A stretch of DNA of 64,000 bases from Gammaproteobacteria bacterium (GCA_030949385.1 JAUZSP010000006.1:64121-128120); one strand, 5' to 3'; counted from the stretch's first letter, positions 4,508-41,611 are shown. Made by a program: numbers and translations. Notes: generated from the letters alone by a model not told the origin.

Positions 4508-4510
4508 ATT

Positions 4511-5169: not shown

Positions 5170-5226
5170 TGAGCGTTAACGGATCGAGTCAAAAAATTTA
5201 TTTTCTAACCTTTTGAGTTTAAAAAA

Positions 5227-5757: not shown

Positions 5758-5783
5758 GGGTTTTTATTGTGAATGAAAAAAAA

Positions 5784-23287: not shown

Positions 23288-23363
23288 GGGCCGTTAGCTC
23301 AGTTGGTAGAGCATCTGACTTTTAATTAGGTGGTCGAAGGTTCGAATCCTTCACGTCCCACCA
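23288..23363 (+). tRNA. tRNA-Lys (anticodon UUU)
   Basis: Cloverleaf by eye: GGGCCGTTAGCTCAGTTGGTAGAGCATCTGACTTTTAATTAGGTGGTCGAAGGTTCGAATCCTTCACGTCCCACCA, very close to E. coli tRNA-Lys. Anticodon loop CTTTTAA. Confidence 0.9.
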
Positions 23364-23370
23364 TATTTTT
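23318..23370 (+). repeat. attL: 53-bp direct repeat, the 3' half of tRNA-Lys plus 7 nt
   Basis: ACTTTTAATTAGGTGGTCGAAGGTTCGAATCCTTCACGTCCCACCATATTTTT; a second copy is at 30921-30973. Confidence 0.85.
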
Positions 23371-23731
23371 CAAAGACTTAGCAAAACTCACCTCTCCACA
23401 AATCTTCCCGTGGGACACTGGTGGGGCACTTCCAAATCAAACACCAGCACAATGACATTCATTTTTGTTGTTATTTTTTCGTGCGTGCGTGTTTATCAAT
23501 TCAATCTTCGGCAATCGCCACCAGCAAAAAAAGAATATTGAACCTAAATTGCCCCCTTTTCGCGGTCAACTGCCCCATGAGTGCCCCATAGACTACTTTT
23601 GTGTTTATAAATTATTGTTTTGTATAGATATTATTTAATAGATCACCTGATTATATATCAGGTGTTGCTGTTTTTTGTGGTTTGTCTTACTCTATTCCCC
23701 ATTGTTCACGGTTGTTTTATGAGGGAAGGAT

Positions 23732-24799
23732 ATGGCCAGCATTGAGAAGCGCACCAGCAAAGAGGGAGTGGTCTCCTATCGGGTCAAAGTGAGGTTGAAA
23801 GGCTACCCAATACAAACGGCCTCTTTTGAACGGCGTACCGATGCCAAAAAGTGGGCGCAGCAAACAGAGGTCGCCATTAGGGAAGGGCGACACTTCAAAA
23901 CCCGAGAGGCCAAACGGCATACTTTTAATGAGCTGGTGAAGCGGTACATAAAAGAGGTGGTGCCACGCAAGCCCAAAGCGGGGGCATACGATCACAGTTA
24001 CCAACTCAGGTGGTGGGCTGATCAAATCGGGGATTGTGTGTTGGCGGACGTTACAGCGGCTTTACTGACAGAGACGCGGGACAAACTGGCCAATATACCC
24101 ACAGTGAATGGGCAGAGGGCAGCCGCTACGGTGAACCGCTATCTTGCCTCTGCAAGCCATGCGTTTACGGTTGCGGTGAAAGAGTGGGGATGGCTGGAAG
24201 ATTCGCCCATGCGGAACGTGAGTAAGTTTAAGGAGCCACGGGGACGGGTGCGCTATTTGAGTGAAGAAGAGCGGCCTAGGTTTCTTGCTGCTTGCCGAGA
24301 GAGCAGTAATCCATACCTGTACCCCGTTGTTGTTCTGGCACTCTCCACCGGAGCGAGAAAGATGGAGATATGTTCCCTTTCTTGGGCGGCCATCGACCTT
24401 AAGCGTGATGCTCCACAGATCGTTTTACATGAAACAAAGAACGGTGAGCGGCGTGTTTTGCCCCTAACAGGCCATGCTTTGGAGCTGGTGCGTGATTTGG
24501 CCAAAGTTCGGCGCATTGATACCCCGTTGCTTTTTCCGAGCTTGAAGAATCCCAGTAAGCCGATGGGCATTAGAGCGCCGTTTCTCAGAGCGTTGGCAAA
24601 GGCTGAAATAGAAGATTTTCACTTCCATGATTTGAGACACAGCGCGGCCAGTTATCTGGCCATGGACGGTGCCAGCATGGCGGAGATAGCGGAGGTTCTA
24701 GGGCATAAAACCCTACAGATGGTGAAACGCTACAGCCACCTTTCAGATGCACACACGGCCAGTGTGGTGGCTTCCATGAATGCCAAGATTTTTGGATAA
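23732..24799 (+). CDS. int: Tyrosine recombinase / phage-type integrase
   Basis: 355 aa. The C-terminal catalytic region has ..HDLRHSAASYLAMDG..LGHKT..MVKRYSH (R...HxxR...Y). The gene sits immediately 3' of the tRNA. Confidence 0.85.
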   Translation: MASIEKRTSKEGVVSYRVKVRLKGYPIQTASFERRTDAKKWAQQTEVAIREGRHFKTREAKRHTFNELVKRYIKEVVPRKPKAGAYDHSYQLRWWADQIGDCVLADVTAALLTETRDKLANIPTVNGQRAAATVNRYLASASHAFTVAVKEWGWLEDSPMRNVSKFKEPRGRVRYLSEEERPRFLAACRESSNPYLYPVVVLALSTGARKMEICSLSWAAIDLKRDAPQIVLHETKNGERRVLPLTGHALELVRDLAKVRRIDTPLLFPSLKNPSKPMGIRAPFLRALAKAEIEDFHFHDLRHSAASYLAMDGASMAEIAEVLGHKTLQMVKRYSHLSDAHTASVVASMNAKIFG

Positions 24800-25051
24800 G
24801 CCTCATTAAGGAAAAAATGCTAATGGCTACGGATAAAAATAAAAATGACCCGTTAGAAAGCCCCATTCTTTGTAGGGGCATGATTCATTACGCGGGGGGA
24901 AAACCCAGAAGCGGCTCAGAATTTATACCTCTTAGCTTCTGAAAAATTAAAGCGTTCTGAATCATTACCATCTAGCTTATCCGAATGGCTTGGGGAGATA
25001 TTAGAGAACTTAGCCTTCTGTGATAGGGAGAATAGGGGAGCAATCCGAAAG

Positions 25052-25384
25052 GTGGTGAAGTTGAATGCTAAAAATGGGGGGCAAAGAAAAAATAGTGAAC
25101 TAGGGTCAAAGATCGCCCGTATACAACATCAACATAAATGCAGTGTTTTAGGTGCTTTAGAGATTGAGGCAGAACAAAATCTCAATGAAGAAGGCAAACA
25201 ATCCGATCATAAAGACCTTCCAGTTGATACTTTACACAAAGCATTTTATAACAAAAATAATACACATCGAGAGGATTGCCGCTTTGTTAAAGCGGTATTA
25301 GAGCAAAAGACCCCATATCATTTCAGAGTGAAAAAAATTCTTTCAATTCTTCAACAAATCGCGATTAAAAAAACAATGGAATAA
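25052..25384 (+). CDS. Hypothetical protein in an AT-rich stretch of the island
   Basis: 110-aa ORF. The local AT-richness departs from the chromosomal composition. Confidence 0.35.
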   Translation: MVKLNAKNGGQRKNSELGSKIARIQHQHKCSVLGALEIEAEQNLNEEGKQSDHKDLPVDTLHKAFYNKNNTHREDCRFVKAVLEQKTPYHFRVKKILSILQQIAIKKTME

Positions 25385-25485
25385 GGGTGTCAGGTTTCTT
25401 CTATTTTTACTAGACAGGCATTTAGCCATACTCCAGCACAACACGGCATAAGCCGCGTTATTTTTAATAATTACTGGAGCTTTAA

Positions 25486-25722
25486 ATGGAACATAGAAGT
25501 TTTTTAACCGTCCCTCAATTCAGCGTTAAACATCCCGCTTTTACCCAATCAAGCCTAAGAGGCTTAATCTTCAACGCCAAAAGTCGGCAGAGCAGCCAAG
25601 GGATGATTGAAGGCAACGGCTTAGCCCCTGCCATTATTCGCATTGGTCGCAAAGTCTTAATTGATGAAGAGAAGTTTTTGGCTTGGGTGGACAACCACCA
25701 GCAAAACGGCCAAGCGGCATAA
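25486..25722 (+). CDS. alpA: AlpA-family phage transcriptional regulator / excisionase-like HTH protein
   Basis: 78 aa. TVPQFSVKH...IRIGRKVLIDEEKFLAWV matches the AlpA/MerR-type HTH of prophage CP4-57-like regulators. Confidence 0.65.
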   Translation: MEHRSFLTVPQFSVKHPAFTQSSLRGLIFNAKSRQSSQGMIEGNGLAPAIIRIGRKVLIDEEKFLAWVDNHQQNGQAA

Positions 25723-25730
25723 GGGGGAAG

Positions 25731-26105
25731 ATGATGAATAAAAAACTGCCAAAGGATGGGGTTGCAACTCCACCCAGTGACCGGCACAACATCACAGTAC
25801 AGCGACTGAACCCCGAGTTTATCCCGCCACGGCTTGATGATAAAGAGGTTATTTCTGGTGCAGTCCATACCACGCTGGCCGGTTTCCCAAACATTGACCC
25901 CAAGGTAGTGCGGTACTACTCCAAAAAGCTGGCCTCTGTTGGCTGGAAGTTGGCGGCTTACGTTTGGAGTGAAGGTACAAAAGGCATTATTAGGATGCCG
26001 GTGGGGACTGAACCCTCTCCCTCTTTGCTGGTGGAGAAATACGGGCTGTTTCGAGGGCGGTTAGAGGCAGAGCTTTTAGGCTCCCAGAATGGAGGTCATA
26101 TCTAA
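25731..26105 (+). CDS. Hypothetical protein on the island
   Basis: ATG at 25731 preceded by AAGGGGGAAG, giving a 125-aa ORF. No recognisable motif. Confidence 0.4.
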   Translation: MMNKKLPKDGVATPPSDRHNITVQRLNPEFIPPRLDDKEVISGAVHTTLAGFPNIDPKVVRYYSKKLASVGWKLAAYVWSEGTKGIIRMPVGTEPSPSLLVEKYGLFRGRLEAELLGSQNGGHI

Positions 26106-26130
26106 TGGTTAATAGATTACTTACCTTGCC

Positions 26131-26375
26131 TTGTCACACTGCCACGCTTAAAAAACCATTTACAAAGCACCTCATATTTATAGGGATTTTAAATAGTATT
26201 AATGTGAGGTGTGATGATTTTCAGAGTGATTTTTTTCACTTTGCTGTTAAAAGGTGGCGTGACAGGCGTGACGGCGTGACAGATCAAAAAAATATATTAA
26301 TTATCAATAGGATAGGTGTGTTTTTGAGTGTCACGCTACGGGTGTGCCACGCCGTGACAGGCGTGACAGATTGCG
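26131..26375. repeat. Left copy of an imperfect inverted repeat of about 245 bp that contains GCGTGACRG iterons and an AT-rich spacer (origin-like)
   Basis: About 90% identical to the reverse complement of 29861-30098. Contains 3 tandem 9-mers GCGTGACAG/GCGTGACGG/CGTGACAGA at 26257-26283, an AT-rich 40 bp, then an inverted TGTCACGC and two more GCGTGACAG copies. Confidence 0.8.
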
Positions 26376-26762
26376 CGATAAGGGGCTTGCTGTTCTGTGT
26401 TAGAGAAGTTTCTGCCGCTTATAAAGGGGCGCGAGCTGGAGCCGTTGCAGAAGTTTTTGCCGCTTATAAAAAGGGAAAGGGGTTGACCACCCGCACTGTG
26501 AAGCCCTATCCTTGCCGTTCCTCTGCACAATCAGAGGACGGGGTTCGCAACCCGAGCAATACCAAGCCGCACCAGCACCGGCCTCAAACCGTGCTTTTTT
26601 TGTGTAAGTCCGTTTGTTCTTTATGGCGGATTGTGTGGGGCAGCTTTCGGGCTGGCCGGTTCCCTTGGTTTCCGGTAGTGCGAACCCCATACAATCTGCC
26701 ACCCTTAAACCGCTTCGTAACGGTCGGTGGCAGCTTCCTAAATTACCAAGGAGCTTGTCATT

Positions 26763-27005
26763 ATGCTTAACTTATCCCCTCCCAATCCGTCTACCCGTTG
26801 CAGTCACGCGCCTGTTGAGGTGGTGGTTTATACGGTCTGTGTTACGTCTCTTTCTCGTTCTGGTGGGCGTACCACGCGCCCTGTATCGCGTTATTTCTCT
26901 TCCCGTATTGGCGCGTTTACCTCCTTTGATCCAGACCCCGACTACTTGGCGTGGTATCACGATCTGCTTTTGCTGGATTCCGCTTTGGCAGGGGGTGGCC
27001 TGTGA
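26763..27005 (+). CDS. Small ORF that may be translationally coupled to the primase gene
   Basis: 80-aa ORF whose TGA (27003-27005) overlaps a candidate GTG start of the primase frame (ctGTGAag). No motif recognised. Confidence 0.25.
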   Translation: MLNLSPPNPSTRCSHAPVEVVVYTVCVTSLSRSGGRTTRPVSRYFSSRIGAFTSFDPDPDYLAWYHDLLLLDSALAGGGL

Positions 27006-29173
27006 AGCAGAAAATAGACTTTCAAGCCATCAACCAATCGGCCATAAACAATGCGGTAAGTGTGCTTAACCATTATCTTCCTGATGGGACAAGCAGTGGC
27101 GGTGAGTACACGGCGTTAAACCCAACACGGGAAGACAGTAAAAAGGGCAGCTTTTCGGTTAACACCCAAAGTGGCCGGTGGTCTGACTTTGCCACAGAGG
27201 ATAAAGGTGGGGATCTGATAAGCCTGATAGCCTACCTAAACGGCACTAAACAGGGTGCAGCGGCCAAAGAGTTGTCCCAGTTTTTGGGGCTGTCAGAGGT
27301 CAACCACAGCAGCCAAAAGAAAACCGCCACGGTGGCGCAATCGAGCAAGCACCCCCCCGCTGAATGGGCACCTTGTTTGCCGGTTCCCAACGATGCACCC
27401 GCACCTCATGAGGAACATTCCCGTTTTGGTAAACCGTCAGGCCGTTGGGTCTATCGGGATGAACAAGGGGCGGTGCTGTTTTATATGTACCGTTTTGAGC
27501 AAGAGGGCAAAAAGAAGAGCTACGCGCCGTTGAGTTACGGCAATTATGGCGCGGGGTGTTTGCACTGGAAGTGGAAGGGTATTCCAGCACCCCGCCCCCT
27601 CTATCATCTTGACCAACTGGCAGCCAAGCCAAAGGCCAAGGTGGTGATCTGTGAGGGTGAAAAAGCAGCGGATGCCGCTCAATACCTTTTGCCGGATTGG
27701 GTCGCCGTTACCCCACCCAATGGGGCGCAATCACCGGATAAGGCCAATTGGTCGCCCTTAAAAGGTCGGGATGTGATGATTTGGCCAGACAATGACAAAG
27801 CCGGTGCCGCGTTTGCGGATCGGGTCAAGGCGCTGGTGGAGGGTGTCGGGGTTAAGTCGGTCGCTTTGTTGGTGGTGCCGTTTGCCTTTGGTCTCGATGG
27901 TGACGGCCTTAAGCCCGTGGCCGGTGATGGCTTTGCAGAGAAGTGGGACGCGGCGGACGCAGAGGCCGAAGGCTGGCAGCCAATGCACCTTAAACAGTTG
28001 ATCCAAAAAGCGGAGTGTGTGCGGGTGACTGCCCTCTCTGTCACGGTGAAGAGGGAAGGCAGAAAGAGACCGATTAAGGGTTCAACCTTTGGCCATAACT
28101 TCAAAGTGAAAGAGAGCGGTGTGTGGTTTCATCCACCATCAGAAGACCAACAGGACGCACCTAAGCCCATATTGATTTGTGACCGGCTGATGGTGAGTGC
28201 CAGAACACGGGACACGCACGGCGAAAGCCACGGGCGGCTGTTGGAATTTGTAGATTCAGACGGTGTACCGCACCAGTGGGCGATGCCTATGGAGATGCTG
28301 GCCGGTGATGGCTTGGAGGTCAGAAAGCGGTTGATGTCCCAAGGTTTAAGTGTGGCGCAGAGCCGCAAATCACGGGATCTGTTGGGCATGTACATACAGA
28401 CGCAACAACCGAAAGACAAGGCGCTCTGTGTGGATCGTATCGGCTGGCATGGTGGGGCATTTGTTTTGCCTGACAAGGTGCTGGGACAGAAAGAGGGTGA
28501 TCGGGTGTTGTTGCAGGCTCCAAGAAGAGAAGACCCTGTGTTCTCTCAAAAAGGCAGCCTTGCAGAGTGGCGGCAGCAGATAGCGGCGTTGTGTCTGGGC
28601 AATTCACGTTTGCTGTTTGCGGTCAGTTTGGGTTTTGCTGCCAGTGTGTTGAAGCCGTTAATGGAAGAGTCGGGCGGTTTTAATATTCGTGGTGCCAGTT
28701 CTACCGGAAAAAGTACGGCGCTACGGGTGGCGTGCAGTGTGTGGGGTGGAGCCAATCGGATGCAGCGGTGGAGAGCCACCGGTAACGGCCTTGAAGGGGT
28801 GGCCTCGATGCACAACGATACCCTTTTGTGCTTGGATGAATTGGGGCAGGTTGAACCACGGGAAGCGGGTGAAATTGCCTACATGCTGGCCAACGGTGCC
28901 GGTAAGCAGCGCAGCCGAAGGGATGGCAGCAGTGCAGCGGTAAAAGAGTGGCGGCTGTTGTTTCTTTCAGCCGGTGAGGTGGGTTTAGCGGAACAGATGC
29001 GCCAAGGCGGTAAGCGGGTCATGGCCGGTCAAGCGGTGCGAATGGTGGATATTCCAGCGGATGCGGGGCGTGGCTTGGGGTTATTTGAAGACGTTGAACG
29101 GCCACCGTTCTGGCGGCCATCTTTCAAAGGCGTTATCGGCTGCCACCCAAAAGGCTTACGGTACAGCAGGTGA
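26951..29173 (+). CDS. Phage/plasmid primase-helicase: N-terminal zinc-binding-like region, Toprim domain, P-loop (DUF927 / SF3-like) NTPase
   Basis: 740 aa. Toprim motifs (VVICEGEKAAD ... DNDKAG). Walker A GASSTGKST and Walker B LLCLDELG. The protein appears to continue in another frame at 29061-29789, implying a frameshift. Confidence 0.75.
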   Translation: MVSRSAFAGFRFGRGWPVKQKIDFQAINQSAINNAVSVLNHYLPDGTSSGGEYTALNPTREDSKKGSFSVNTQSGRWSDFATEDKGGDLISLIAYLNGTKQGAAAKELSQFLGLSEVNHSSQKKTATVAQSSKHPPAEWAPCLPVPNDAPAPHEEHSRFGKPSGRWVYRDEQGAVLFYMYRFEQEGKKKSYAPLSYGNYGAGCLHWKWKGIPAPRPLYHLDQLAAKPKAKVVICEGEKAADAAQYLLPDWVAVTPPNGAQSPDKANWSPLKGRDVMIWPDNDKAGAAFADRVKALVEGVGVKSVALLVVPFAFGLDGDGLKPVAGDGFAEKWDAADAEAEGWQPMHLKQLIQKAECVRVTALSVTVKREGRKRPIKGSTFGHNFKVKESGVWFHPPSEDQQDAPKPILICDRLMVSARTRDTHGESHGRLLEFVDSDGVPHQWAMPMEMLAGDGLEVRKRLMSQGLSVAQSRKSRDLLGMYIQTQQPKDKALCVDRIGWHGGAFVLPDKVLGQKEGDRVLLQAPRREDPVFSQKGSLAEWRQQIAALCLGNSRLLFAVSLGFAASVLKPLMEESGGFNIRGASSTGKSTALRVACSVWGGANRMQRWRATGNGLEGVASMHNDTLLCLDELGQVEPREAGEIAYMLANGAGKQRSRRDGSSAAVKEWRLLFLSAGEVGLAEQMRQGGKRVMAGQAVRMVDIPADAGRGLGLFEDVERPPFWRPSFKGVIGCHPKGLRYSR

Positions 29174-29789
29174 GGCGTTTATTAATGGCTTGTTGCCCTT
29201 GGGTGATCTGGTGCCCGTTGTTGAGGGGTTACAGGCGGACTTCCTTAAGGGTCTGCTTCCAGATGAAGCCGATGGTCAGGTTCACCGTGTGGCGGGTCGT
29301 TTTGCGTTGGTGGCGGCGGCGGGTGAGCTGGCCACTCGATTTAAGATCACCGGCTGGCCAACAGGTGAGGCCAGTAAGGGAGTAAAGAGCTGCTTTAACG
29401 ATTGGTTAAAAGAGCGCGGCGGTCACGGAGCACAGGAAGAGAGAGAGGCTTTAAAACAGGTTCGCCACTTTATCGAGGTTCACGGGGAGTCGCGGTTCTC
29501 TCCTTGGGTGCAAGATGAGCGATACCGCAGCACCAGCAACCGAGCGGGTTTCCGTAAGCACTTGGAGGGTGGCGGGGTGGAGTATTACATTTTGAGAGAA
29601 AGCTTTAAGCGTGACGTGTGTGACGGCTTGGATTGGCGTTTTGTTGTCGAAGTCTTGAAAAAACACGAATGGCTTGTTCTGGATTCAAAAGGGGGAGCGA
29701 CACGCCCCGAACGCTTGCCAGAAGGAGGCCGTCAGCGGTGTTACCGTTTAAAAATTCCTGAGCTGGTGGAGATGCGCGCAGTTTCATAG
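29061..29789 (+). pseudogene. Frameshifted C-terminal continuation of the primase-helicase (DUF927 C-terminal region)
   Basis: The frame is open from 29061 and overlaps the end of the 740-aa ORF. The sequence ..AGRFALVAAAGELATRFKITGWPTGEA.. resembles the conserved C-terminal part of DUF927 primase-helicases. The frame switch lies near 29100-29125. Confidence 0.55.
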
Positions 29790-29860
29790 GGTTATGTTGG
29801 ATTGGTTCGACGGGACTTAAAAGCGGCTATTTGGCCGTTTTTTTGTGCCCATGACAAAAT

Positions 29861-30098
29861 CTGTCACGCCTGTCACGCCGTGACACACCCGTAGCGTGAC
29901 AGCCAAAATAGCATATAACATATTGATATTAAATAAGTTATTTGGATCTGTCACGCCGTCACGCCTGTCACGACACCTTTTAGCAGCAAAGTGAAAAAAC
30001 CAATCTGAAAATCCTCACACCTCACATAAATACTATTTAAAATCCCTGTAAATATGAGATGCTTTGAAAATGGTTTTTTATGTGTGGCAGTGTGACAA
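29861..30098. repeat. Right, inverted copy of the roughly 245-bp iteron-containing repeat
   Basis: Reverse complement aligns with 26131-26375 at about 90% identity. TGTCACGCC iterons at 29861-29902 and 29948-29972 flank an AT-rich spacer. Confidence 0.8.
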
Positions 30099-30202
30099 AT
30101 AAACTGCTTTAAGGTACTAGGTAGGGAATTTGGTTTGCGGGTAATTCGAACCCCGCTTAGACGTTATTTACCACCTTATTCAAAATAAACGGGTTCGGGG
30201 CA

Positions 30203-30451
30203 TTAGCCTACCTTGCGGATTTCTTCACGAATAACGCGGCGTAGAACAGCCTCTAATGGTTCTTTGCCCTCTACGCTTTGGATGTGTTGTTGTAGGGCTG
30301 CATTAATCAGTGATTGATAGTTACCACCACCGGCCACTTGATCCCGAAACCATTGCACCACGTCACTGTCAAGACGGATGGTGATTCGTTCCTTATTGCT
30401 TTGGATCACAGCGCCCCGTTGGGCGTTATTGAAGTCGTAATGTTCTCTCAT
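30203..30451 (-). CDS. brnA: BrnA antitoxin (RHH/DUF4415) of a type II toxin-antitoxin pair
   Basis: 82 aa. ..ERITIRLDSDVVQWF..GGNYQSLINAAL.. matches the BrnA family. It starts 4 bp after the brnT stop. Confidence 0.7.
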   Translation of the reverse strand: MREHYDFNNAQRGAVIQSNKERITIRLDSDVVQWFRDQVAGGGNYQSLINAALQQHIQSVEGKEPLEAVLRRVIREEIRKVG

Positions 30452-30454
30452 GGC

Positions 30455-30727
30455 TTAGCCCTCGTACTGTTTGCGTTCTTGCCTATTGGCCTTTCTGGCA
30501 GAGATGATGCGGATAACATCCCCTATTTTGTGCAGGTTTACCACCAGCAAAACACGCCCTTGAAAATCCATGCCAAGCGTTAAGAGGCGCGCCTCTTGGT
30601 GGTTGTGATCTGGGTCGGTTTGGGTCAGTGCCATATCATCGTAAAAGACTCCCACCGCATCGGCAAAATCCACACCGTGCTTATTTAGGTTGGTGTGGCG
30701 TTTGTTTTCATCCCATTCAAAGTTCAT
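30455..30727 (-). CDS. brnT: BrnT ribonuclease toxin (DUF497)
   Basis: 90 aa. MNFEWDENKRHTNLNKHGVDFADAVGVFYDD matches the canonical BrnT N-terminus. Confidence 0.75.
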   Translation of the reverse strand: MNFEWDENKRHTNLNKHGVDFADAVGVFYDDMALTQTDPDHNHQEARLLTLGMDFQGRVLLVVNLHKIGDVIRIISARKANRQERKQYEG

Positions 30728-30920
30728 GGGTTGAGTGTATGCCGGTTGTGCATACAGTCAAGTATCCTTTAGATGGGGTGGTGTTACTGCCCTGTGGGGC
30801 ACTCATGGGACACTAGACCAGCAAAAACAGGGGTAAACGTGAACAAGTGGAAACAATGGGTTGCCATTAACTTATTGATTTAATTCTTTTTTTATTGTTC
30901 TTGGTTGTTCTGGATTATTC

Positions 30921-30973
30921 GTTGTTCGAAACTTTTAATTAGGTGGTCGAAGGTTCGAATCCTTCACGGCCCA
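30921..30973 (+). repeat. attR: second copy of the 53-bp tRNA-Lys 3'-half repeat
   Basis: ACTTTTAATTAGGTGGTCGAAGGTTCGAATCCTTCACGGCCCACCATATTTTT; 52/53 identical to 23318-23370. Confidence 0.85.
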
Positions 30974-31071
30974 CCATATTTTTAAACGCTGTTCTTAGCG
31001 TTGATTCTTTCATTTTATTTTGCCTTAATAGGCTACCTTTCCGGTACGATCATTGACTCACTTTTTTATCT

Positions 31072-31782: not shown

Positions 31783-33046
31783 GAAAATAGAGTTCTCAAA
31801 AAACGACAATCAAAGAAGGCCGCCCGTGGAATCCATAGTAGAATCGGTTTTACTCTCCATGTCCAGTGTTAAAAAACCACAACGTCTTTTTCTCTCAGCT
31901 CTGTTTTCCGCATTGATGGTTTTTCAAGGGAAAGCCACTTTTCGTAATTTGAGTCGTTACAGTTCGTTGCATGAAAAACGTCTGTCGCGTTGGTTTCGAC
32001 GTTCATTTGATTTTGCACAATTCAACAGACGCCTACTTCAAAAAGGGCTGCCACAAAAGCACGATCAAATTGCCGCCATTGATGCCAGCTTTATGAAAAA
32101 AAGTGGTCAGAAAACAGCAGGGTTGGGTTGGTTTTACAACGGCGCTTTGGGGCAAGCCATGGTGGGGTTGGAGTTGTCGTTGGTTTGCCGAATTGATCTT
32201 CAAAGTCGAACCGCTTACGCGCTGGAGGCTCGCCAAACGTTGGACTCGGAACAGAAAGAGGGTGAGAGCCGAGTGGACTGCTACGCGAAACAGGTTTGTG
32301 ACCTTGCCTGTGATCTTCAAGCGCAAGGCATTCGCTACCTTACCGCAGACGCCTACTACAGCAAGGTGAAGTTTGTCGATGCGGTCTGTTCAGATGACTT
32401 ACACCTGATTGGAAAGCTGCGTTCAGATGCCAACCTAAGCTGGTATTTTGAGGGCGAGTACGGTGGCAAAGGACGTCCTAAAACGTACGATGGTAAAGTC
32501 AATTTCCAAACGGAGCTGTCCCGTTTTGATGCGTGTGGCGTAATGGATAAGGGGGTATCGATTTACAGCGCCGTGGTTCACTCGTGTTGTTTCAAACGGA
32601 AAATCCGTGTGGTGCTGCTGCGATGGGAGCAGAAGACAAAAGTCCGTTCGGCTCTGCTGTTTTCTACGGATTCGGAGTTGGCTCCAGAAAAGATTGTCGA
32701 ATATTACACCGCTCGTTTTCAGATTGAATTTTTGTTTCGTGAAGCTAAGCAACATACGGGTTTAATGGATTGCCAAGCGCGTTGCCCAGAGGCCATTCAA
32801 ACTCATATTAATGCCTCGTTCACCGCACTGAATTTATTGAAGCTGGAAGACCGTAAGGACAAGAGCAACCCTGAGCCTTCGGTGATTTCGATTGCCTCGT
32901 GGCGACGTAAGAAATTCAATCAATATTTGATGAAAATACTTTTTGACAAGTTAGGTTTGGAGAGATCTTGTCAAAAAGTCGAGGCGGTTTACCATGAGCT
33001 GAGTGAGTATGGGGCTATTCAGGTTTAAAACTGTCCGAAGTATTGA
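31727..33046 (+). mobile_element. IS701-like insertion sequence (IS4 superfamily), 1320 bp
   Basis: 21-bp perfect terminal inverted repeats TCAATACTTCGGACAGTTTTA (31727-31747 and 33026-33046). A 4-bp direct duplication CCGT at 31723-31726 and 33047-33050. A single transposase ORF. Confidence 0.75.
31826..33028 (+). CDS. DDE transposase (IS701/IS4-like)
   Basis: 400 aa with a DDE_Tnp_1-like organisation (..AIDASFMKKSG.. ... DAYY ... EFLFREAKQHTG). It lies between the inverted repeats. Confidence 0.65.
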   Translation: MESIVESVLLSMSSVKKPQRLFLSALFSALMVFQGKATFRNLSRYSSLHEKRLSRWFRRSFDFAQFNRRLLQKGLPQKHDQIAAIDASFMKKSGQKTAGLGWFYNGALGQAMVGLELSLVCRIDLQSRTAYALEARQTLDSEQKEGESRVDCYAKQVCDLACDLQAQGIRYLTADAYYSKVKFVDAVCSDDLHLIGKLRSDANLSWYFEGEYGGKGRPKTYDGKVNFQTELSRFDACGVMDKGVSIYSAVVHSCCFKRKIRVVLLRWEQKTKVRSALLFSTDSELAPEKIVEYYTARFQIEFLFREAKQHTGLMDCQARCPEAIQTHINASFTALNLLKLEDRKDKSNPEPSVISIASWRRKKFNQYLMKILFDKLGLERSCQKVEAVYHELSEYGAIQV

Positions 33047-33298: not shown

Positions 33299-34078
33299 AT
33301 GGAGTGCGTTTTAATGATTGATGAGGCTTTGGCGTTTCGTCTGGGTCAGGAAAGCCCCGGTTTTTACGGCAAAATTCCCGTTAGGGGTGATTTTGTGTCG
33401 CGCCGCTTGGCGCAGCATTTTGTTGAACCTTGGGATCATTGGTTGCAAGAGTCTTTGCTCTCCAGTCAGGAGCAGTTGGCGGATGACTGGTTGGATGTCT
33501 ACCTGACCAGCCCTGTGTGGCGTTTTGTGATGACCAAAGGGGTCTGTGGTTCTCTGCCGTGGGCGGGAGTGGTGATGCCGAGTGTGGATCGAATGGGGCG
33601 TTATTTTCCTTTCACCCTTGCGACTCCGTTGGCCGAAGGGGTGAATCCGTTTCGAATGATGCAGTCGGGAGGGGCGTGGTACGCACAAGCAGAAACCTTG
33701 GCGCTTTCCAGCCTCCGCGAAGGCTTTGAACTGGAAGAGTTTGACCAGCAATTGAAACGTTTACGAGTGCCGAAAAGTGCCGCTAAAGAGACGGTACACA
33801 ACGGCATAATGGGGGTTTCGTCCGCTTGGCATATCTCATTAGCGGCACCGTCGAGTTTGGCGGGTGCTTGTTCTGAGTTGGCAAATCAGGCTCTGGAAGA
33901 GCTTTATTTTGGCTACAGCCTCTGGTGGAGCCACGGTTCCGAGCAGGTGGAACCTTCTTTTTTAGTATGTCAGGGATTACCCCCGACAACAGGCTTTGCA
34001 GCCATGTTGGGAGGAGACTGGGAAAATGCAGATTGGCAGAAGAGAAGCGTTACCTCTGCCCACGGTGATGGATTTTGA
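33299..34078 (+). CDS. tagF: TagF (DUF2094) type VI secretion-associated protein
   Basis: 259 aa. GFYGKIPVRGDFVSRRLAQHFVEPWDHWLQESL is close to the P. aeruginosa TagF N-terminus (WYGKLPSLGDFVSRRLP..FV.PWD.WLQ). ..SVDRMGRYFPF.. is also conserved. Confidence 0.7.
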   Translation: MECVLMIDEALAFRLGQESPGFYGKIPVRGDFVSRRLAQHFVEPWDHWLQESLLSSQEQLADDWLDVYLTSPVWRFVMTKGVCGSLPWAGVVMPSVDRMGRYFPFTLATPLAEGVNPFRMMQSGGAWYAQAETLALSSLREGFELEEFDQQLKRLRVPKSAAKETVHNGIMGVSSAWHISLAAPSSLAGACSELANQALEELYFGYSLWWSHGSEQVEPSFLVCQGLPPTTGFAAMLGGDWENADWQKRSVTSAHGDGF

Positions 34079-34859
34079 CGGTGGTGAATTAGGTTTGTAC
34101 TGGAACTCAGCCGCTATCACCCACATGGGAAAGGTTAGAAATAATAATGAGGACGCTTATTTGGAGCGTCCAGAAGTGGGTTTGTGGGTGGTTGCTGATG
34201 GCATGGGTGGTCACGCCTACGGTGAATTGGCCAGTCAATGGATTGTGGAGTCACTGCAAAGCCTAGAACCGCCGTTGGGATTCGGTGCTTATGTCCGTGA
34301 GGTAAAACGTGCCCTGTTGGGAGTAAATGAGCGTCTGTTGGCAGAGGCGCAGCGCCGAGGTAAAACAACCATTGGCAGTACGGTGGTTGTGTTGCTGGCG
34401 TGGCGTCAGTATTGTGTTTATCTGTGGGCCGGAGACAGCCGAGCGTATTTGTTGCGCAACAAACGTTTGCGTTCTTTGACTTGGGATCACGGTCCACTGG
34501 AAGAGTTTGTTGCTCGCGGTTTGGTGAGTCGTGAAGAGTCCGACAGTTATGTGGATTCCAATGCCATCACTCGAGCGGTGGGAGCGTCTAAGCGGTTGGA
34601 GTTGGATTGCCATATTCAGGCCGTTTGCCGAGGCGATGTTTTTTTACTCTGTAGTGACGGTCTCTATCGAGAGATTGAAAACGCGGAGATTGAAGCGTTG
34701 TTGAATCAAGGTTCACCCCAAGAGAGTGCGGAGGCTTTGGTGACCTTGGCACTCTCTCGTGGCGCGCGAGATAATGTGACGGTCGTGGTGGCTGCTGCTG
34801 GCAGTGGCCGGGGGTTGCAGACCGTAGAGCGCTCTAACGTGATTGATTTTGCGATGTGA
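34068..34859 (+). CDS. pppA: PP2C-family Ser/Thr protein phosphatase (PppA-like)
   Basis: The ATG at 34068 overlaps the tagF stop (ATGGATTTTGA). PP2C motifs: ..VADGMGGHAYGELAS.., ..GSTVVVLLA.., ..AGDSRAYL.., ..LLCSDGL... Confidence 0.75.
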   Translation: MDFDGGELGLYWNSAAITHMGKVRNNNEDAYLERPEVGLWVVADGMGGHAYGELASQWIVESLQSLEPPLGFGAYVREVKRALLGVNERLLAEAQRRGKTTIGSTVVVLLAWRQYCVYLWAGDSRAYLLRNKRLRSLTWDHGPLEEFVARGLVSREESDSYVDSNAITRAVGASKRLELDCHIQAVCRGDVFLLCSDGLYREIENAEIEALLNQGSPQESAEALVTLALSRGARDNVTVVVAAAGSGRGLQTVERSNVIDFAM

Positions 34860-35017: not shown

Positions 35018-37208
35018 ATGCAACAACTGCAACAGATCGAAGCCATCGAAAAACGTCTTTGGAAAGCAGCCGATACCTTGCGCTCCAACTCCGAACTGGC
35101 GAGCAACGAATATTTTATGCCGGTGATGGGGTTGGTGTTTTTGCGTCACGCTTACAGCCGTTTTCTTGCGGTCAAGGCTGAGATTGAGAAAACCCTGCCC
35201 AGTCGGGGTGGAAAAACTCGTGCATTAAGCAAAGATGATTTTGCTGGTCGGGGGGGCGATTTTTCTCCGTGAAGAGGCGCAGTTTGATTATTTGGTGGCG
35301 CTGAGTGATGAAGTTGATTGTACGCAAGCGGTCATTGCGGCGATGAACTCCATTGAGGAGGATTACACGGGGCTAAAGAAGCAGTTACCAAAAGAGGAGT
35401 ATCAAGGGATCTCCAGTGAGGTGGTGCGGCAGTTGTTGCGCAGTCTCAACCCAGAAGAGTTAAAGCAGGCCGATGGGGATATTTTTGGCCGTATCTATGA
35501 GTACTTCTTGACTCAGTTTGCTGACCAGGGGGCGCACGATGGCGGTGAGTTTTTTACTCCGATCTCTTTGGTGCAGATGATCGTTAATGTGATCGAGCCT
35601 CATAAGGGCAAAATTTTAGACCCTGCCTGTGGTTCTGGTGGCATGTTTGTGCAGAGTGCACATTTTGTCGATCAGCAGAAAAAGGAGTCTCATGATGCCT
35701 TGACCTTTTACGGTCATGAGAAAAACCCCACCACAACCCGTTTGGCGAAGATGAATCTACGGGTGCATGGTCTGGAAGGCGAGGTTGCTGGGGGCAGTGA
35801 GGCGATCACCTACTACAATGACCCGCATGATTTGGTGGGCGATGTTGATTTTGTGATGGCCAACCCGCCTTTCAATGTGGATGAGGTGGATGCGAGCAAA
35901 ATTGAAACGGATGCACGCCTGCCGTTCGGTTTGGCAGGAGTAAATAAAGGCGGCAAGGTTTCTAACGGTAATTACCTTTGGATTTCCTATTTTTACAGCT
36001 ACCTGAATGAGACAGGCCGTGCGGGGTTTGTGATGTCGTCGCAATCGTCCAGTGCTGGAGGGGCTGAGGCAAAGGTGCGTCAAGCGTTGATTGAGACCGG
36101 CCATGTGGATCTGATGATTGACATCCGTTCTAACTTTTTCTACACCCGTTCGGTGCCCTGTCAGCTCTGGTTTTTGAATAAGGGCAAGCCTGAGGCGCAT
36201 AAAGATAAGGTGTTGATGATTGATGCGCGGCAGGTTTACCGTCAAGTGACGCGCAAGATTTACGACTTTAGCCCTGAGCAGTTGGCCAATTTAAACAGCA
36301 TTGTTTGGCTTTATCGCGGTGAGTCTGGGCGGTTTATTGAGTTGGTGCAGAGTCACATTCAGAAGGCGCTGGATCATGCGTGGCTTGCCTTTGCTCTGGA
36401 GTATGAAGAGGAGGTGGTTGTTGAGAAAGGCGGTTCGAAAGAGATCAAGATCGTTGAATATAATCCAATTTTTGTCTCGGTTGAGTTGTTGCAGAAGATT
36501 GAGAAGGCCATTACGCCTTTCTATAAGCAGCAAACCGCCGCGCTACAAGAGGACTTAAAAGCGTTTTCGGACAAAGTGGTTCTGCTGAGTGCGGAGAGTA
36601 AAACCTTTGAGGCGCTGGTGGATCAGGTCACGAAACAGTGGGGAGCTGGCACCTTTAAGACGGCGAAGTCGTTAAACAAGCTGATCGCTGATGGGGGTAA
36701 GGTGGCGCAGTTGGCGGAGCGCAGTCGTGATTTTATGGCTGAGTTGGAGTCGGTTTGTAAAGCGTCGAACGGTCTGTTTGAGAACGCTGAGAAGGTGTTA
36801 AAGGCGAAGAAGGTCAAGAAAAGTAAGCTTTGGGATCGGGTGGCCTTGCTCAGTGGCAAGGAGAGTTTAAAAAAACGCTTGGAGAGGATGCGAGGGGATG
36901 CGGTGGAGCAGTTGAAGCAGGTGAGCTATTTTCATCAGCAGGCGTTGTGGTTGTTGAGCCGTTTCCCTGAGGCGAAGTTGGTGGATGTGGCAGGGCTGGT
37001 GAGGTTGGTGGATCAAACGGAGCTGGCGGCGAATGATTGGAGCCTGACCCCGGGGCGTTATGTGGGGGTGGCGGCTGAGGAAGAGGAAGAAGGATTTGAT
37101 TTTGCCGTGAGCCTGCGGGAGATTCACCGTGAGTTGGAGGGGTTAAATAAAGAAGCGGTAACGCTGGCTGAAAAAATAGCCCAGAACTTTAAGGGGCTGG
37201 GGGTATGA
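35018..37208 (+). pseudogene. hsdM: Type I restriction-modification DNA methyltransferase subunit HsdM, frameshifted in a G7 tract (possible phase-variable tract or an assembly error)
   Basis: N-terminus MQQLQQIEAIEKRLWKAADTLR (HsdM N-terminal domain) in one frame up to ..KDDFAGRGG. The main body (..LDPACGSGGMF.. and the NPPF motif) is in the +1 frame from 35235. The switch falls exactly in GGGGGGG at 35250-35256. Confidence 0.8.
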
Positions 37209-38392
37209 GCTTTTTTTTAACCACAATAAAGGATGTGTCGCTTGGTGTATATGATGGTCCGCACGCAACGCCTAAAGTGTCAACCTCTGGTCATGTTTTT
37301 TTAGGGATTAAGAATGTGACATCTCAAGGCAGGCTTGATTTGTCTAAAATAAAATATGTATCGAAAGAAGAATACTCTAAGTGGATAATAAGGGTAAAGC
37401 CTCAATGTGGAGATGTGGTATTTTCTTATGAAGCTACCTTGCATAGATATGCAATTATTCCTAAAGGGTTTGAAGGGTGTTTGGGGCGTCGCATGGGACT
37501 GATAAGGCCAGATCCAAAAAAAATAAATTCACGTTTTCTTCATTACTATTTTCTATCTCCACAATGGCAAAAATATGCAGATACAAAGGTGATTGTAGGA
37601 GCAACAGTGAGTAGGTTTTCTATAAAAGATTTTCCTGATTTTTTGCTTAATATACCCTCGCTAGAGATACAGAAAGTAATTTCTACAGTGTTGTCTCAAT
37701 ACGACGATCTTATAGAAAACAACCGTCGCCGCATTCAATTGCTAGAAGAGTCCGCCCGTTTGCTCTACAAAGAGTGGTTTGTGCATCTGCGCTTTCCTGG
37801 TCATGAGCAGGTTAAAGTTGTTGATGGTGTGCCGGAGGGGTGGGTTAAGAAAAATCTTTTTGAAGTAAGTAGGGTGACATACGGTTTTTCATTTAAGTCA
37901 ACCCTGTTTTCTGGTGATGCTATTGGGCTTCCTGTTGTTAGGATAAGAAATATTCCCTCCCGTGTATCTAAGGTATTTACCATTGAAGAAGCCCCTGAAG
38001 AAAAATTATTAGAAAATGGAGATTTTTTAATTGGTATGGATGGTGATTTCCATATGAATTATTGGTGTGGTGGAAAAGCATGGTTGAACCAACGGGTTGT
38101 TAGAGTTCTTGGGGCTAATGGTGTGAGTACGGGGTTTGTAAAGCAGGCAATTGAAAAGCCTATTTTTGATTTCAATAGAGTTATTACTGGAACCACAGTG
38201 CGACATCTTGGGGCAAAGCACCTAAAAATGATTGATTTTTTTATTCCTGATGATGATGTGTTGAATAAGGCGAATGACTATTTTGAAGATGTTCGTATTC
38301 AAGTTGTTTGTCTATTTCAGAAAATTAAAAAACTTGAGCAAGCCCGAGATATTTTATTGCCTCGTTTGATGAGCGGAGAGCTGGTGGTATGA
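37205..38392 (+). CDS. hsdS: Type I R-M specificity subunit HsdS
   Basis: 395 aa with two target-recognition-domain halves and conserved central and C-terminal coiled repeats (..LLEESARLLYKEWFVHLRFPGHE.., ..LEQARDILLPRLMSGEL). AT-rich like typical hsdS. The start overlaps the hsdM stop. Confidence 0.8.
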   Translation: MSFFLTTIKDVSLGVYDGPHATPKVSTSGHVFLGIKNVTSQGRLDLSKIKYVSKEEYSKWIIRVKPQCGDVVFSYEATLHRYAIIPKGFEGCLGRRMGLIRPDPKKINSRFLHYYFLSPQWQKYADTKVIVGATVSRFSIKDFPDFLLNIPSLEIQKVISTVLSQYDDLIENNRRRIQLLEESARLLYKEWFVHLRFPGHEQVKVVDGVPEGWVKKNLFEVSRVTYGFSFKSTLFSGDAIGLPVVRIRNIPSRVSKVFTIEEAPEEKLLENGDFLIGMDGDFHMNYWCGGKAWLNQRVVRVLGANGVSTGFVKQAIEKPIFDFNRVITGTTVRHLGAKHLKMIDFFIPDDDVLNKANDYFEDVRIQVVCLFQKIKKLEQARDILLPRLMSGELVV

Positions 38393-41300
38393 GTGGCATG
38401 ACCGAAGATACGCTGGTGCAACAGACCACCGCCGACTACCTGCGTGACGCACTGGCGTGGGACGAATCCCTCTACGCCATGCAGGAAACACTCGGCACAG
38501 ACGGCACCCTCGGACGCGAAAGCGAAAAAGAGATCATCCTCAGCCGCTACCTCAGCCAAACCCTCATCCGACTCAACCCAAACCTGCCCGACGAAGCCTA
38601 CCAAAACGCCCTGCAACAGATCATCAGCGTCAACAGCAGCCAAAGCCTCGCCGCGATCAACCAAGAAAAAGACCGACTCTACAAACAGGGCGTAGCGGTC
38701 AACTACCGCGACAAAAAAGGCCAACGCCAGCAGAAAACCCTCCGCATCTTCGACTTTGAACAAGCCGACAACAACCACTTTTTAATCGTGCGCGAACTCT
38801 GGATCAAAGGCGACGTGTACCGCCGCCGCGCCGATTTGGTGGGCTTCGTCAACGGCATCCCGCTGATTTTTATGGAAGTGAAAAACCTGCACCGAAGCGT
38901 TAAAGCCGCCTACGAAGAGAACCTCTCAGACTACCGAGACAAAGACGTTATCCCACATCTTTTTCACCACAACGCCGTGGTGATCTTAGGCAACGGAATC
39001 GAGGCTAAAATCGGCTCCCACTCCTCAAAGTACGAACACTTCAGCGAATGGAAACGGCTGGACGAAGAGGAGAGCGGAGCGGTGGCAATGGAGACCCTAC
39101 TCAAAGGGGTCTGTGGCAAAAGAAACTTTCTCGACCTGTTTGAAAACTACATCATCTTTGACGACTCCAGCGGCAAAACAGTCAAAATCATCGCCCGCAA
39201 CCACCAATTTCTCGGCGTGAACCGTGCCCTTGACGCAGTGAAAAAGCGTCGGTCACTGCAAGGCAAGCTCGGGGTCTTTTGGCACACCCAAGGTTCGGGG
39301 AAATCCTACTCGATCCTCTTCTTTGCCAAAAAAATCCGCCGTAAACTGGGCGGAAACTACACCTTTTTGCTGCTCACCGACCGCGACGATCTCGACAATC
39401 AGCTCTACAAAACCTTTGCCGGAGCGGGGCTGGTGAATCACGACCGCGACCCCTGCCGCGCCAACAGCGGCAAACACCTCGATGAACTGCTTGGTCAGCA
39501 GAAAGCCTTTATCTTTACCCTGATTCAGAAATTCAGCACCGCAGAGATGCGCGGCTCGCAACGGGACGACATCATCGTCATTACCGATGAAGCGCACCGC
39601 ACCCAGTACGGCACTCTGGCGCTGAATCTGCGCAACGCCCTGCCTAACGCCTGTTTCATCGGCTTTACCGGCACCCCGCTGTTGAAAGAGGATCAGATCA
39701 CCCGCCAAGTGTTTGGCGATTACATCTCCACCTACGACTTTCAACGAGCCGTGGAAGATCAAGCCACCGTGCCACTCTTCTACGATGCACGGGGTGAGGC
39801 GCTACGTCTTGAGGGAAAGGGGGGCGATGAGAACGGTGGTTCGGTGGCGGAACCGAATGGGTTGAACAAAAAAATCAGCGCAAAACTGGCTGAGATGGAT
39901 GTGGAGGATCTGGACGTTCAGCGGCGCTTAGAGCGCGAATTAAAGCGCGCTTATCACATCGTCACCGCCAGCAGCCGTCTGGAGCAGATCGCCGATGATT
40001 TTGTCGAGCATTACAGCGCAGGCTGGCAAAACGGCAAAGCAATGCTGGTCTGCATTGATAAAGTGACCTGTGTGCGGATGTACGATTTGATCAAGGAGCG
40101 TTGGCAGCAGCATCAGGTGGCACTGAGCAAGCGACTTACCAGCGAGACAGCGGATGAGCAGGAGATGATCTTTCGTGAGCGCCAACTGACGTGGATGCAA
40201 GAGACCCAGATGGCGGTGGTGGTGAGCGAGGAGCAGGGCGAGGTAGAGAAATTTCGCCATTGGGATCTGGACATCCTTCCCCATCGTAAATTGATTAAAG
40301 AGGGCTTTCAGGAGGGCAAGGGGCGGTTAAAGCTGGAAGAGGCGTTCAAGCGTGAAGAGCACCCTTTCCGTGTGGCGATTGTCTGCGCCATGTGGTTGAC
40401 GGGGTTTGATGTGCCGAGTTTATCAACTCTTTATCTGGATAAACCGCTGAAAGCCCACTCCTTGATGCAGGCCATCGCCCGTGCCAACCGAGTCGCTGAG
40501 GGTAAAAATAACGGTTTGATTGTGGATTACTGCGGCATTTTGAAGAATTTACGCCAAGCCTTGGCGGACTTTGGGGGTGCTGCGAATGGCAGTTCTGTCC
40601 CTGACCCGGTGCGACCCAACAAAGAACTGCTGGCAACGCTGGCCGAGTCCATTGCAGCGGTCAAAACCTTTTTGAATCAGCGGGGCTTTGAGCTAACAAA
40701 GATCACCGAGGATGTTGGTTTTGCGCGTAATCAAGCCATTATGGAGGCCAAAGAGGCGGTCAATGAAAATAATCGGAGCAGAAAAACCTATGAAGTGATG
40801 GCGCGTGAGGTGGTGAAAAAATTCAAAGCCTGCATCACGCTGCGCCCCGAAGTGAATGCGTATCGGCTGGATCGGGATGCCATTCACATCATCTACAAAT
40901 CGCTGCAACGGGATCGAGAGACGGCAGACATCAGCCAGATTATGAGGGCGCTGCACAAGCTGGTGGATGAGTCGGTGTTGGTGGAAGAGCGCACCGTGCG
41001 CGAAGCGCGGGTCTACGATATGAGCAAAATTGATTTTGAGCGTTTGCGAGCGGAGTTTGCTCAGCAGGCGCAGAAAAAAACCGTGGTGCTTAATTTGAGT
41101 GATGTCTTGGCGAAACAGCTGAATAAATTGGTGCAGCAGAATCCGTTGCGAACCGATTTTCAAACGCATTTTGAAGCGGTGGTGGCGCGTTACAACGATG
41201 AAAAAGAGCATCTCGCCATTGAGCAGACCTTTGATGAGTTGTTGAATTTTATGCAGGAGTTGGGGCAGGAGGAGGCGCGGGCGCTGCGCGAGGGCTTGGA

Positions 41301-41611
41301 TCAGGAGAGTTTGGCCTTGTTTGATCTGCTGAACAAACCGGAGTTAAGTAAAAAAAGAGATCAAGACCATCAAGCGGGTGGCAACGGAGCTGTTAAAAGA
41401 TGTGAAAAAGGAGCTGGTCACGATTCAGCACTGGCAAGAGAAAGGGCGCGCTCGGGCGGCGATCAAACAGGGTATTTATGACCACCTGTACGATGACAAA
41501 ACGGGCTTGCCAGAGAGCTACGAAGTGGAGGAGATTGGTTTGTTAGCCGATGAACTGTTCAGTCATATTTATCGTGTGTACCCCACTTTACCCTCACCGG
41601 TTTATGGTTAA
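38389..41611 (+). pseudogene. hsdR: Type I R-M endonuclease subunit HsdR, frameshifted at an A7 tract near the C-terminus
   Basis: The 1030-aa ORF carries SF2 helicase motifs (..TQGSGKS.., DEAH in ITDEAHRTQYG, ..QAIARANR..). The final roughly 75 aa (..VATELLKDVKKELVTIQHWQEK..) are in the -1 frame as ORF 41378-41611. Removing one A from AAAAAAA at 41350-41356 restores ..LSKKEIKTIKRVATELL... Confidence 0.8.

Follow-up and report, generated by a model that had tools for sequence, protein, structure and literature searches.

Why would an integrated element carry two almost identical blocks of iterons, in opposite orientation, on either side of its replication operon? This question is raised by a 64,000-nt stretch of DNA from a Gammaproteobacteria bacterium (GCA_030949385.1, JAUZSP010000006.1:64121-128120), which in its full length is referred to below as the window. 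Here, a 7,613-bp (7.6-kb) island integrated at a tRNA-Lys gene contains an operon that ends in a gene (rep) for a primase-helicase (Rep), and this operon lies between a left arm at 26131–26373 (+) and a right arm at 29857–30098 (−). Judged from their sequence, the two arms probably represent a bipartite replication origin of the type formed by the ori and crr sites of satellite phage P4, built in this case from two near-identical inverted modules. The two-site origin of P4 is already known; what differs here is that the two modules are nearly identical and inverted. Loci of relatives are denoted by L-numbers (e.g., L001).

Two inverted iteron modules bracket the replication operon

The arms are 243 and 242 nt long and form an inverted pair. 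A repeat search returned two blocks (26231–26372/29858–29999, 142 nt, 87%; 26131–26235/29994–30098, 105 nt, 91%), which are one and the same pair offset by a 1-nt indel. Global alignment of the left arm with the reverse-complemented right arm gave 87.7% identity (213 matches in 243 columns, 1 gap). With BLAST, the upstream and downstream flanks gave an inverted match with E = 4.5e-85, while the longest match between the same flanks in direct orientation, used as a control, was 14 nt. An earlier note on this DNA had placed inverted repeats of roughly 90% identity at 26131–26375 and 29861–30098, flanking the primase-helicase gene. All three methods recover this pair where it had been placed, and the hand-estimated identity was close to the 88% found, but the right arm begins at 29857 or 29858 and not at 29861. 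The arms do flank rep, as had been stated, but they bracket the whole operon rather than this gene alone.

The word GCGTGACRG, named in the same note as the iteron of both repeats, occurs 10 times in the window compared to 1.16 expected, a count that was reached in none of 100 shuffles, and 9 of the 10 sites fall inside the arms. When one mismatch is allowed, CGTGACAG is found at 23/kb in the arms vs. 0.58/kb elsewhere in the window (40x). An assembly artefact can be excluded, because the arms are 88% and not 100% identical and because the same layout is also found in the genomes of cultured isolates (Methylobacillus, Plasticicumulans and Rhodocyclus).

Both arms share a 3-1-2 iteron pattern, in which three tandem iterons of 8–9 bp and an AT-rich spacer are followed by a single inverted iteron and then by another two iterons. 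The left arm, whose position is equivalent to that of P4 ori, starts with outer inverted iteron-like words (26131–26146) and an outer tract of 72% AT (26148–26256). These are followed by the iteron triplet (26257–26282), a 45-nt spacer of 80% A+T (26283–26327), the inverted iteron (26328–26337) with TACGGGTGTG after it, a degenerate inverted iteron (26345–26352) and the iteron doublet (26353–26369). The right arm begins 68 nt past the stop of rep (29789), in the position of P4 crr and of the origins of the Staphylococcus aureus pathogenicity islands (SaPIs) and other phage-inducible chromosomal islands (PICIs). It mirrors the left arm with a doublet (29861–29877), degenerate and inverted iterons (29879–29902), a spacer of 80% AT (29903–29947), a triplet (29948–29972) and an outer tract of 70% AT (29973–30081). 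The internal order that had been described for the repeats (triplet, AT-rich spacer, inverted iteron, conserved word and doublet) is thus present in both, one being the mirror image of the other.

The differences between the arms are concentrated in the AT-rich spacer and not in the iterons, as the identity is 96% for the iteron triplet and 91% for the flanks, but only 69% for the spacer. Since the spacer has nevertheless kept 80% A+T in both arms, its composition rather than its sequence seems to be constrained, as would be the case for an unwinding element. No exact match to the iteron triplet CGTGACAGGCGTGACGGCGTGACAG was found in viral and metagenome contigs.

The two-module layout recurs among relatives

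Loci with related rep genes were collected from a genome collection and from viral contigs and were screened for inverted repeats of ≥60 nt, one copy of which had to lie no more than 1.5 kb after the gene. Such a pair was present in 36 of the 79 evaluable relatives, and one of its arms always follows the gene closely. The second arm lies upstream of the gene, so that the pair flanks it, in 28 loci, while both arms are downstream and 0.2–0.9 kb apart in six and adjacent to each other in two; the remaining 43 have no such pair. Comparable direct repeats were not found in self-BLAST screens of the relatives. An independent k-mer test was in agreement with this: iterons are clustered past the gene in 42 loci, and in 28 of these the same 8-mer forms another cluster, with nearly every copy of a locus's word falling inside the clusters. 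Several of the 43 loci negative by BLAST are positive in the k-mer test or in maps of iteron orientation, which puts the true fraction with two modules at about one half to two thirds. The orientation maps also resolved four loci that looked like single clusters (L038, L077, L035 and L098) into two inverted modules, 21–61 bp apart. Two inverted modules, separated by some 20 bp at the least and some 10 kb at the most, thus seem to be the plan of the family, with the reservation that 43 of the 79 lack a pair by the BLAST criterion.

The layout recurs in elements of Beta-, Gamma-, and Alphaproteobacteria with different iteron words. The 3-1-2 pattern is exact in 31 of 76 arms when only exact 7-mers are counted, and most of the others are near-variants of it. 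In most relatives the left arm is found 11–106 nt past the stop of the integrase gene (int) and 1.6–5 kb upstream of rep, from which it is separated by genes and an int-alpA RNA. In the closest relative, L001, Rep is 73% identical to that of the window, while the integrase is unrelated and the element is inserted at a tRNA-Leu gene. L001 has an inverted repeat at 9224–9349/12823–12948 with the same module inside and 3,473 nt between the arms. In L094 (6288–6871) and L039 (9072–9593), where both arms are downstream of the primase-helicase gene, a small conserved protein rich in Cys (…FALHPSAVIL…IWIAPPEC…) is encoded in the 0.5–0.6 kb that separates the arms.

The iteron word is specific to each element. 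It is CGTGACAG in the window, while the left and right arms of L001 both have CGTTACAG, which differs by one base (G in the window and T in L001 at position 5), and many relatives have words that contain a common TGTC/GACA core. The two arms of one element are 87–99% identical, compared to 65–85% for same-side arms of related elements and 72–84% for their rep genes. The sole exception is the very recent pair L007/L009, which shows the opposite pattern. As identity is higher within than between elements, the duplication should be old and its copies have been kept alike, and by this comparison the arms appear to evolve in concert within each element.

These observations bear on two of the readings that the earlier note had put forward. 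The first, a remnant of a duplicated origin, would make the second arm a neutral and decaying product of an accidental duplication, and would agree with an arm identity of only 88% and with the frameshift that rep has suffered in the window (see below). We find this barely probable, as a decaying copy should not be homogeneous with its partner in element after element, across three proteobacterial classes and with different words, and as the arms have diverged in the AT-rich spacer rather than in the iterons. This option is thus contradicted by the conservation of the arms throughout the family and by their concerted evolution.

According to the second, the arms delimit either a segment able to invert or a nested mobile sub-element with terminal inverted repeats. 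A long inverted repeat around unique sequence would fit, as would L085, an IMG/VR contig of 8,058 bp whose ends (1–131 and 7928–8058) are exactly two arms, inverted and 99% identical. A break in this place is, however, what assemblers produce at any repeat, and as the assembly of L085 broke there, assemblies may systematically fragment elements of this kind. In all 26 of 26 loci int is upstream of the left arm and shares the strand of rep, so that no orientation polymorphism was seen, and a target-site duplication was found in 0 of 29. Between the arms of the window there are only an RNA, a small open reading frame (ORF) and the primase-helicase gene, with no transposase or invertase, and the content that the arms enclose ranges between 0.5 and 10 kb among relatives. 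It is therefore hardly conceivable that the arms bound an invertible or nested unit, and this option from the note is contradicted as well.

Iteron words follow the replication protein

Rep is encoded at 27002–29789 (+) and consists of a Zn-ribbon-like N-terminus, a Toprim domain, a DUF927 helicase (Pfam DUF927, 5e-92, plus Toprim) and a C-terminal region predicted to recognize the origin. Its homologs are 900–970 aa long. In the window the gene is frameshifted by one extra base at ∼29086–29091, which splits it into ORFs at 26951–29173 and 29061–29789. The first of these aligns to residues 1–686 of P0002, the closest homolog, which is intact and 917 aa long, and the second to its residues 677–917, with 73 and 72% identity on the two sides of the break. 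Since P0002 matches across the break, the real gene spans about 27002–29789. The extra base could represent a real pseudogene or an assembly error in this metagenome-assembled genome. As the frameshift cuts off the origin-reading region, the island copy may be unable to replicate alone; if real, it separates this region from the helicase, and the island would probably need a repaired or trans-acting Rep.

A profile of 20 homologs matched SaPIbov1 Rep (8tch, 1.8e-27) and Cch of the staphylococcal cassette chromosome mec, SCCmec (5dgk, 3.6e-22), in the PDB. The C-terminal piece alone had no match there in a sequence search, but an AlphaFold model of the 242 aa detached by the frameshift (pLDDT 87.5) matched the C-terminal parts of 8tch and 5dgk in a fold search, followed by a winged-helix protein bound to oriT DNA. 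In SaPI Reps, the iterons are read by a C-terminal winged-helix domain (PMC9371898, PMC7581432). By analogy with these, the winged-helix C-terminal region of the island Rep may well read the iterons of the arms.

Sharing of iterons between relatives correlated with both the C-terminal region and the helicase of Rep (rho 0.21–0.22, with rough values of p ≤ 5e-4), vs. rho 0.09 (p 0.15) for the integrase. The trend is most easily seen in L007/L009, which have common iterons and a 99% identical Rep C-terminal region while their integrases are only 32% identical, and in the window and L001. The iteron words thus seem to track Rep and not the integrase.

This comparison is also relevant to the idea that the repeated words are unrelated to replication and bind some other island protein, be it the integrase (as arm-type sites) or a regulator of the AlpA/excisionase type. 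Integrases of the P4 type do bind arm-type repeats, as annotated in P4, and in many relatives the left arm comes directly after int. Still, we regard this idea as very improbable, since the iterons track Rep in L007/L009 despite the dissimilar integrases, and since the words of the window and L001 are one base apart although their integrases are unrelated and their tRNA targets differ. The arms of the window are moreover 0.8–2.8 kb from the attachment (att) sites, and no AlpA is detectable in it.

Architectural resemblance to satellite phage P4

A second cis-acting site, crr, located several kilobases from ori, has been known in P4 for decades, and to our knowledge the requirement for it has found no clear mechanistic explanation to date. 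In the P4 record (NC_001609) crr is at 4291–4590, the primase-helicase gene alpha at 4636–6969 and the ori iterons at 9310–9413. As in the window, two clusters of one iteron word flank an operon ending in a primase-helicase gene, one of them (crr) directly 3′ of this gene and the other (ori) upstream of the leader of an immunity RNA. The leader and the C4/CI immunity RNA lie between the upstream cluster and the primase-helicase gene in both cases, with the limitation that the matches to the window leader are below threshold. The circular order is also the same: module, leader, C4/CI RNA, primase-helicase, module, att and int. Furthermore, the experimentally defined ori of P4 has the same 3-1-2 iteron pattern as each arm of the window. 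P4 crr is needed in cis for replication (NC_001609 annotation; bioRxiv 10.64898/2026.03.30.715334), whereas PMC9942202 names crr solely as one part of a cosmid design.

The resemblance has its limits. The alpha protein consists of a Zn-ribbon, Toprim, a D5_N/DUF5906 SF3 helicase and a Pox_D5 C-terminus, whereas Pfam assigns the window Rep to DUF927. Homology of Rep to alpha was considered and, except for a weak similarity at the N-terminus, rejected, as hhalign aligned residues 6–102 only, with a probability of 19%. P4 crr is made up of two direct 120-bp repeats with another iteron pattern, in contrast to the near-identical inverted 243-bp modules of the window. Finally, genes of the P4 sid, psu, delta and epsilon type were not found among the small ORFs of the island with Pfam and PHROG.

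Iteron clusters on both sides of an initiator gene, bound by the same protein, are also known from the plasmids P1 (incC/incA) and F (incB/incC), where the two loci are known to pair and the second locus is inhibitory. By this precedent only the right arm would fire, and the left arm would be a negative control locus that titrates Rep or acts by handcuffing, like P1 incA or F incC. The classic P1/F arrangement and the presence of the same iteron word in both arms would suit such a role, and as the left arm is ∼110 nt upstream of a promoter-like site of the operon, bound Rep could in addition repress transcription. We nevertheless consider a control locus unlikely, because both arms have kept the entire 3-1-2 pattern together with the AT-rich spacer, which would be needless for pure titration and sets them apart from P1 and F, and because in some relatives the modules are directly adjacent and form one dyad that resembles a single cooperative origin. 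P4, the closest architectural analog, needs its second locus (GenBank annotation; bioRxiv 10.64898/2026.03.30.715334). The island also differs from P1 and F in its initiator, as no ORF in it has a Rep_3/RepA-type initiator domain according to Pfam.

With the SaPIs and PICIs the element shares a DUF927-type self-loading initiator-helicase, as seen from the profile and fold matches to SaPIbov1 Rep (8tch), and in SaPI5 PriRep primase and helicase are likewise fused. SaPI origins are located directly downstream of rep and have 6–12 iterons around a central AT-rich region (PMC9371898). The right arm of the window, as far as its sequence goes, fits this description exactly, being directly 3′ of rep with iterons, some of them inverted, on both sides of an AT-rich region (PMC9371898, PMC6092414, PMC7581432). 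There are three differences. A single origin is described in these papers, while the window has a second complete, inverted module 3.5 kb away; SaPIs and PICIs are regulated by Stl or AlpA, while the window has a P4-type C4/CI RNA; and packaging or capsid-remodeling genes were not found in the window island. The element thus mixes P4-type regulation with a SaPI-type helicase. In SCCmec Cch, both the C-terminal region and the helicase core are homologous (5dgk; profile E 3.6e-22, fold TM 0.60), but there is no fused Toprim primase, and a defined iteron origin of Cch is not known to us. The PICMIs of Vibrionaceae (minimalist chromosomal islands inducible by phages) resemble the island in being very small, with an integrase, a regulator, a primase and few other genes (PMC10803314). 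They differ in their DUF3987/DUF5906 primases and are defined as a family with AlpA and Fis; iterons or inverted repeats are not mentioned for them (PMC10803314).

A putative bipartite origin

The iteron-origin architecture proposed in the earlier note, duplicated in inverted orientation around a replication module, is supported by the anatomy of the arms, by their conservation in the family and by iteron words that track Rep. Among the readings it offered, a bipartite origin gives the best fit to the P4-like synteny, the 3-1-2 pattern and the conservation of the arms. According to this reading, each arm would be a complete origin module with its own AT-rich unwinding spacer. After excision, Rep would bind both modules, which would then most probably cooperate by looping and act as one origin with dyad symmetry. 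Such an origin would load two opposed helicase hexamers, analogous to the need of P4 for ori plus crr in cis. Binding of the arms by Rep, the need for both arms and the looping between them are suggested here by analogy with the P4 and SaPI systems. The island itself would then be a minimal P4-like element with a SaPI-Rep-type (DUF927) primase-helicase, in which no helper-manipulation genes were found.

Several points weigh against a bipartite origin. Since 43 relatives have no inverted pair near the gene by the BLAST criterion, not every element can need a second module at a distance. The high similarity of the arms could in part result from gene conversion and not from selection on both copies. 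The correlations between iterons and Rep are weak, and their p-values are rough because the pairs are non-independent. There is no long inverted repeat between ori and crr in P4, only inverted matches of 17–24 nt, and as the helicase and C-terminal domain of alpha are not detectably homologous to those of Rep, the parallel with P4 is one of architecture and not of protein family. Moreover, rep is frameshifted in the window copy, and Rep binding and origin activity are predictions here.

A broader view can be put forward tentatively, and we hold it with clearly less confidence. The origin of the family might be a dyad of inverted half-origins that work 20 bp to 10 kb apart through looping by Rep, P4 crr might simply be a second half-origin displaced from a dyad of this kind, and the layout might have arisen or been kept across unrelated helicases (DUF927 and D5-type). 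If this is true, the origin can enclose the rep operon or a small gene, or it can be empty. The family forms a natural series in this respect, as the same two inverted modules are found adjacent, 0.2–0.9 kb apart, or 3.5–10 kb apart around the rep operon. Such a series suggests a concrete explanation for crr and turns the question of why P4 has two sites into a testable hypothesis, namely two half-origins that would each load one helicase hexamer.

The module may also be used as a simple sequence signature for origins, cryptic replicative islands and candidate satellites in environmental Proteobacteria. Islands of this kind would be missed by current satellite finders since they have no capsid-hijacking genes. 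Relatives were found on 8–17-kb IMG/VR contigs, which is suggestive only with regard to induction, packaging and transfer by helper phages.

The regulatory region between the left arm and rep

Two 27-nt direct repeats, GTTRSAGAAGTTTYTGCCGCTTATAAA, were found by the repeat search inward of the left arm at 26399–26425 and 26444–26470 (+; 89%). They precede a promoter-like site, TTGACC-18-TATCCT (26483–26512, +; promoter scan), and are possibly an operator. L001 has only one clear copy of this repeat. The leader that follows matches the Rfam models for the C4 target a1/b1 (26506–26558, +; 40.7 bits) and isrK (26519–26601, +; 40.9 bits), both below the gathering score. An antisense immunity RNA of the C4/CI type known from P4 and P1 is clearly predicted at 26619–26706 (+; RF01695, 84.5 bits with a gathering score of 45, E 4.5e-16). 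As a control, the C4 and isrK models were run on phage P4, where both match at the CI immunity locus (C4 74.9 bits). In L036 and L165, as in the P4 immunity region, the C4, a1/b1 and isrK models all match above threshold. The DNA at 26476–26780 is 81% identical to that of L001.

An operator role has also to be considered for the left arm itself. Binding of Rep there could mainly serve autoregulation of the immunity/replication operon, the right arm would be the sole origin, and the likeness of the arms would merely reflect binding by the same protein. The left arm is just upstream of the operon, GTGACA in the iteron is similar to a −35 hexamer, and both arms contain weak promoter-like matches, at 26276–26304 (+) and in mirror position at 29954–29926 (−). 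These matches are only 9/12, however, and in most relatives the left arm is 1.6–5 kb upstream of rep with genes in between, while both arms are downstream of rep in six loci. We therefore think it quite improbable that autoregulation is the main function of the left arm.

A 221-aa ORF that runs over the left arm (26105–26770) was rejected as a gene, as all six frames score alike and the C4 RNA lies inside it. In the JGI annotation of L001 a gene is called across the region equivalent to the C4 RNA of the window, and this counterpart ORF was rejected too. Eight two-arm relatives (L006, L010, L013, L018, L020, L022, L023, and L039) have an int-alpA RNA (RF02996) and not a C4 RNA. Since RF02996 replaces the C4 RNA in many relatives, the origin layout combines with at least two different regulatory modules.

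Phage vB_Pae_U10 (L165, PP003922.1) was considered as further support for the layout and was rejected. Although a related primase and the C4 region are present, it has neither a long inverted repeat nor convincing iteron clusters. Its record, "Pseudomonas phage vB_Pae_U10" of 10,183 bp, is labeled a "complete phage genome," but looks like an island with integrase, C4 RNA and primase plus a P2-type GpN capsid gene. Its C4/a1b1/isrK region (2158–2360) is annotated as a coding sequence for an "excisionase and transcriptional regulator."

Boundaries, genes and surroundings of the island

The island unit is defined by the last 56 nt of the tRNA-Lys gene, which recur with 96% identity at 30931–30986. 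The tRNA-Lys(UUU) gene is located at 23288–23363 (+) according to ARAGORN and the Rfam tRNA model. The two copies of the 56-nt direct repeat form the left boundary, attL (23318–23373, +), and the right boundary, attR (30931–30986, +). Between these, the order is int, small ORFs, left arm, C4/CI RNA, 80-aa ORF, primase-helicase, right arm and BrnTA. The tyrosine integrase (23732–24799, +; Pfam Phage_integrase 7e-31, PHROG integrase 1.9e-66) lies outside the arms. Three small ORFs between int and the left arm (25052–25384, 25486–25722 and 25683–26105, all +) have no matches in Pfam or PHROG, and the small ORFs of the window show no similarity to AlpA and orf168 of L001. The 80-aa ORF (26763–27005, +) overlaps the start of the primase-helicase gene and is by synteny the counterpart of L001 orf87.

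The sole recognizable cargo is a type II toxin-antitoxin pair outside the arms, consisting of the BrnA antitoxin (30203–30451, −; Pfam BrnA 1.6e-12) and the BrnT toxin (30455–30727, −; Pfam BrnT 5.5e-26). No cos site turned up in the island, for which no directed search was made. Megablast of 25000–31000 against phage and plasmid collections gave no match. In the excised circle (window 23374–30930) the arms would be spaced by 3,483 and 3,645 bp, i.e., almost diametrically opposite to each other. The circle of L001 would be less symmetric, as estimated by hand from the repeat coordinates, and the symmetry in the window may be a coincidence.

On the chromosome, the island is neighbored by a sulfur transporter gene upstream and msrA downstream. 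Further on, beyond attR and msrA, there are a DDE transposase gene (31826–33028), TagF and PP2C genes (33299–34859) and a complete type I restriction-modification system (35235–41481). The neighborhood of this tRNA-Lys gene thus looks like a variable region.

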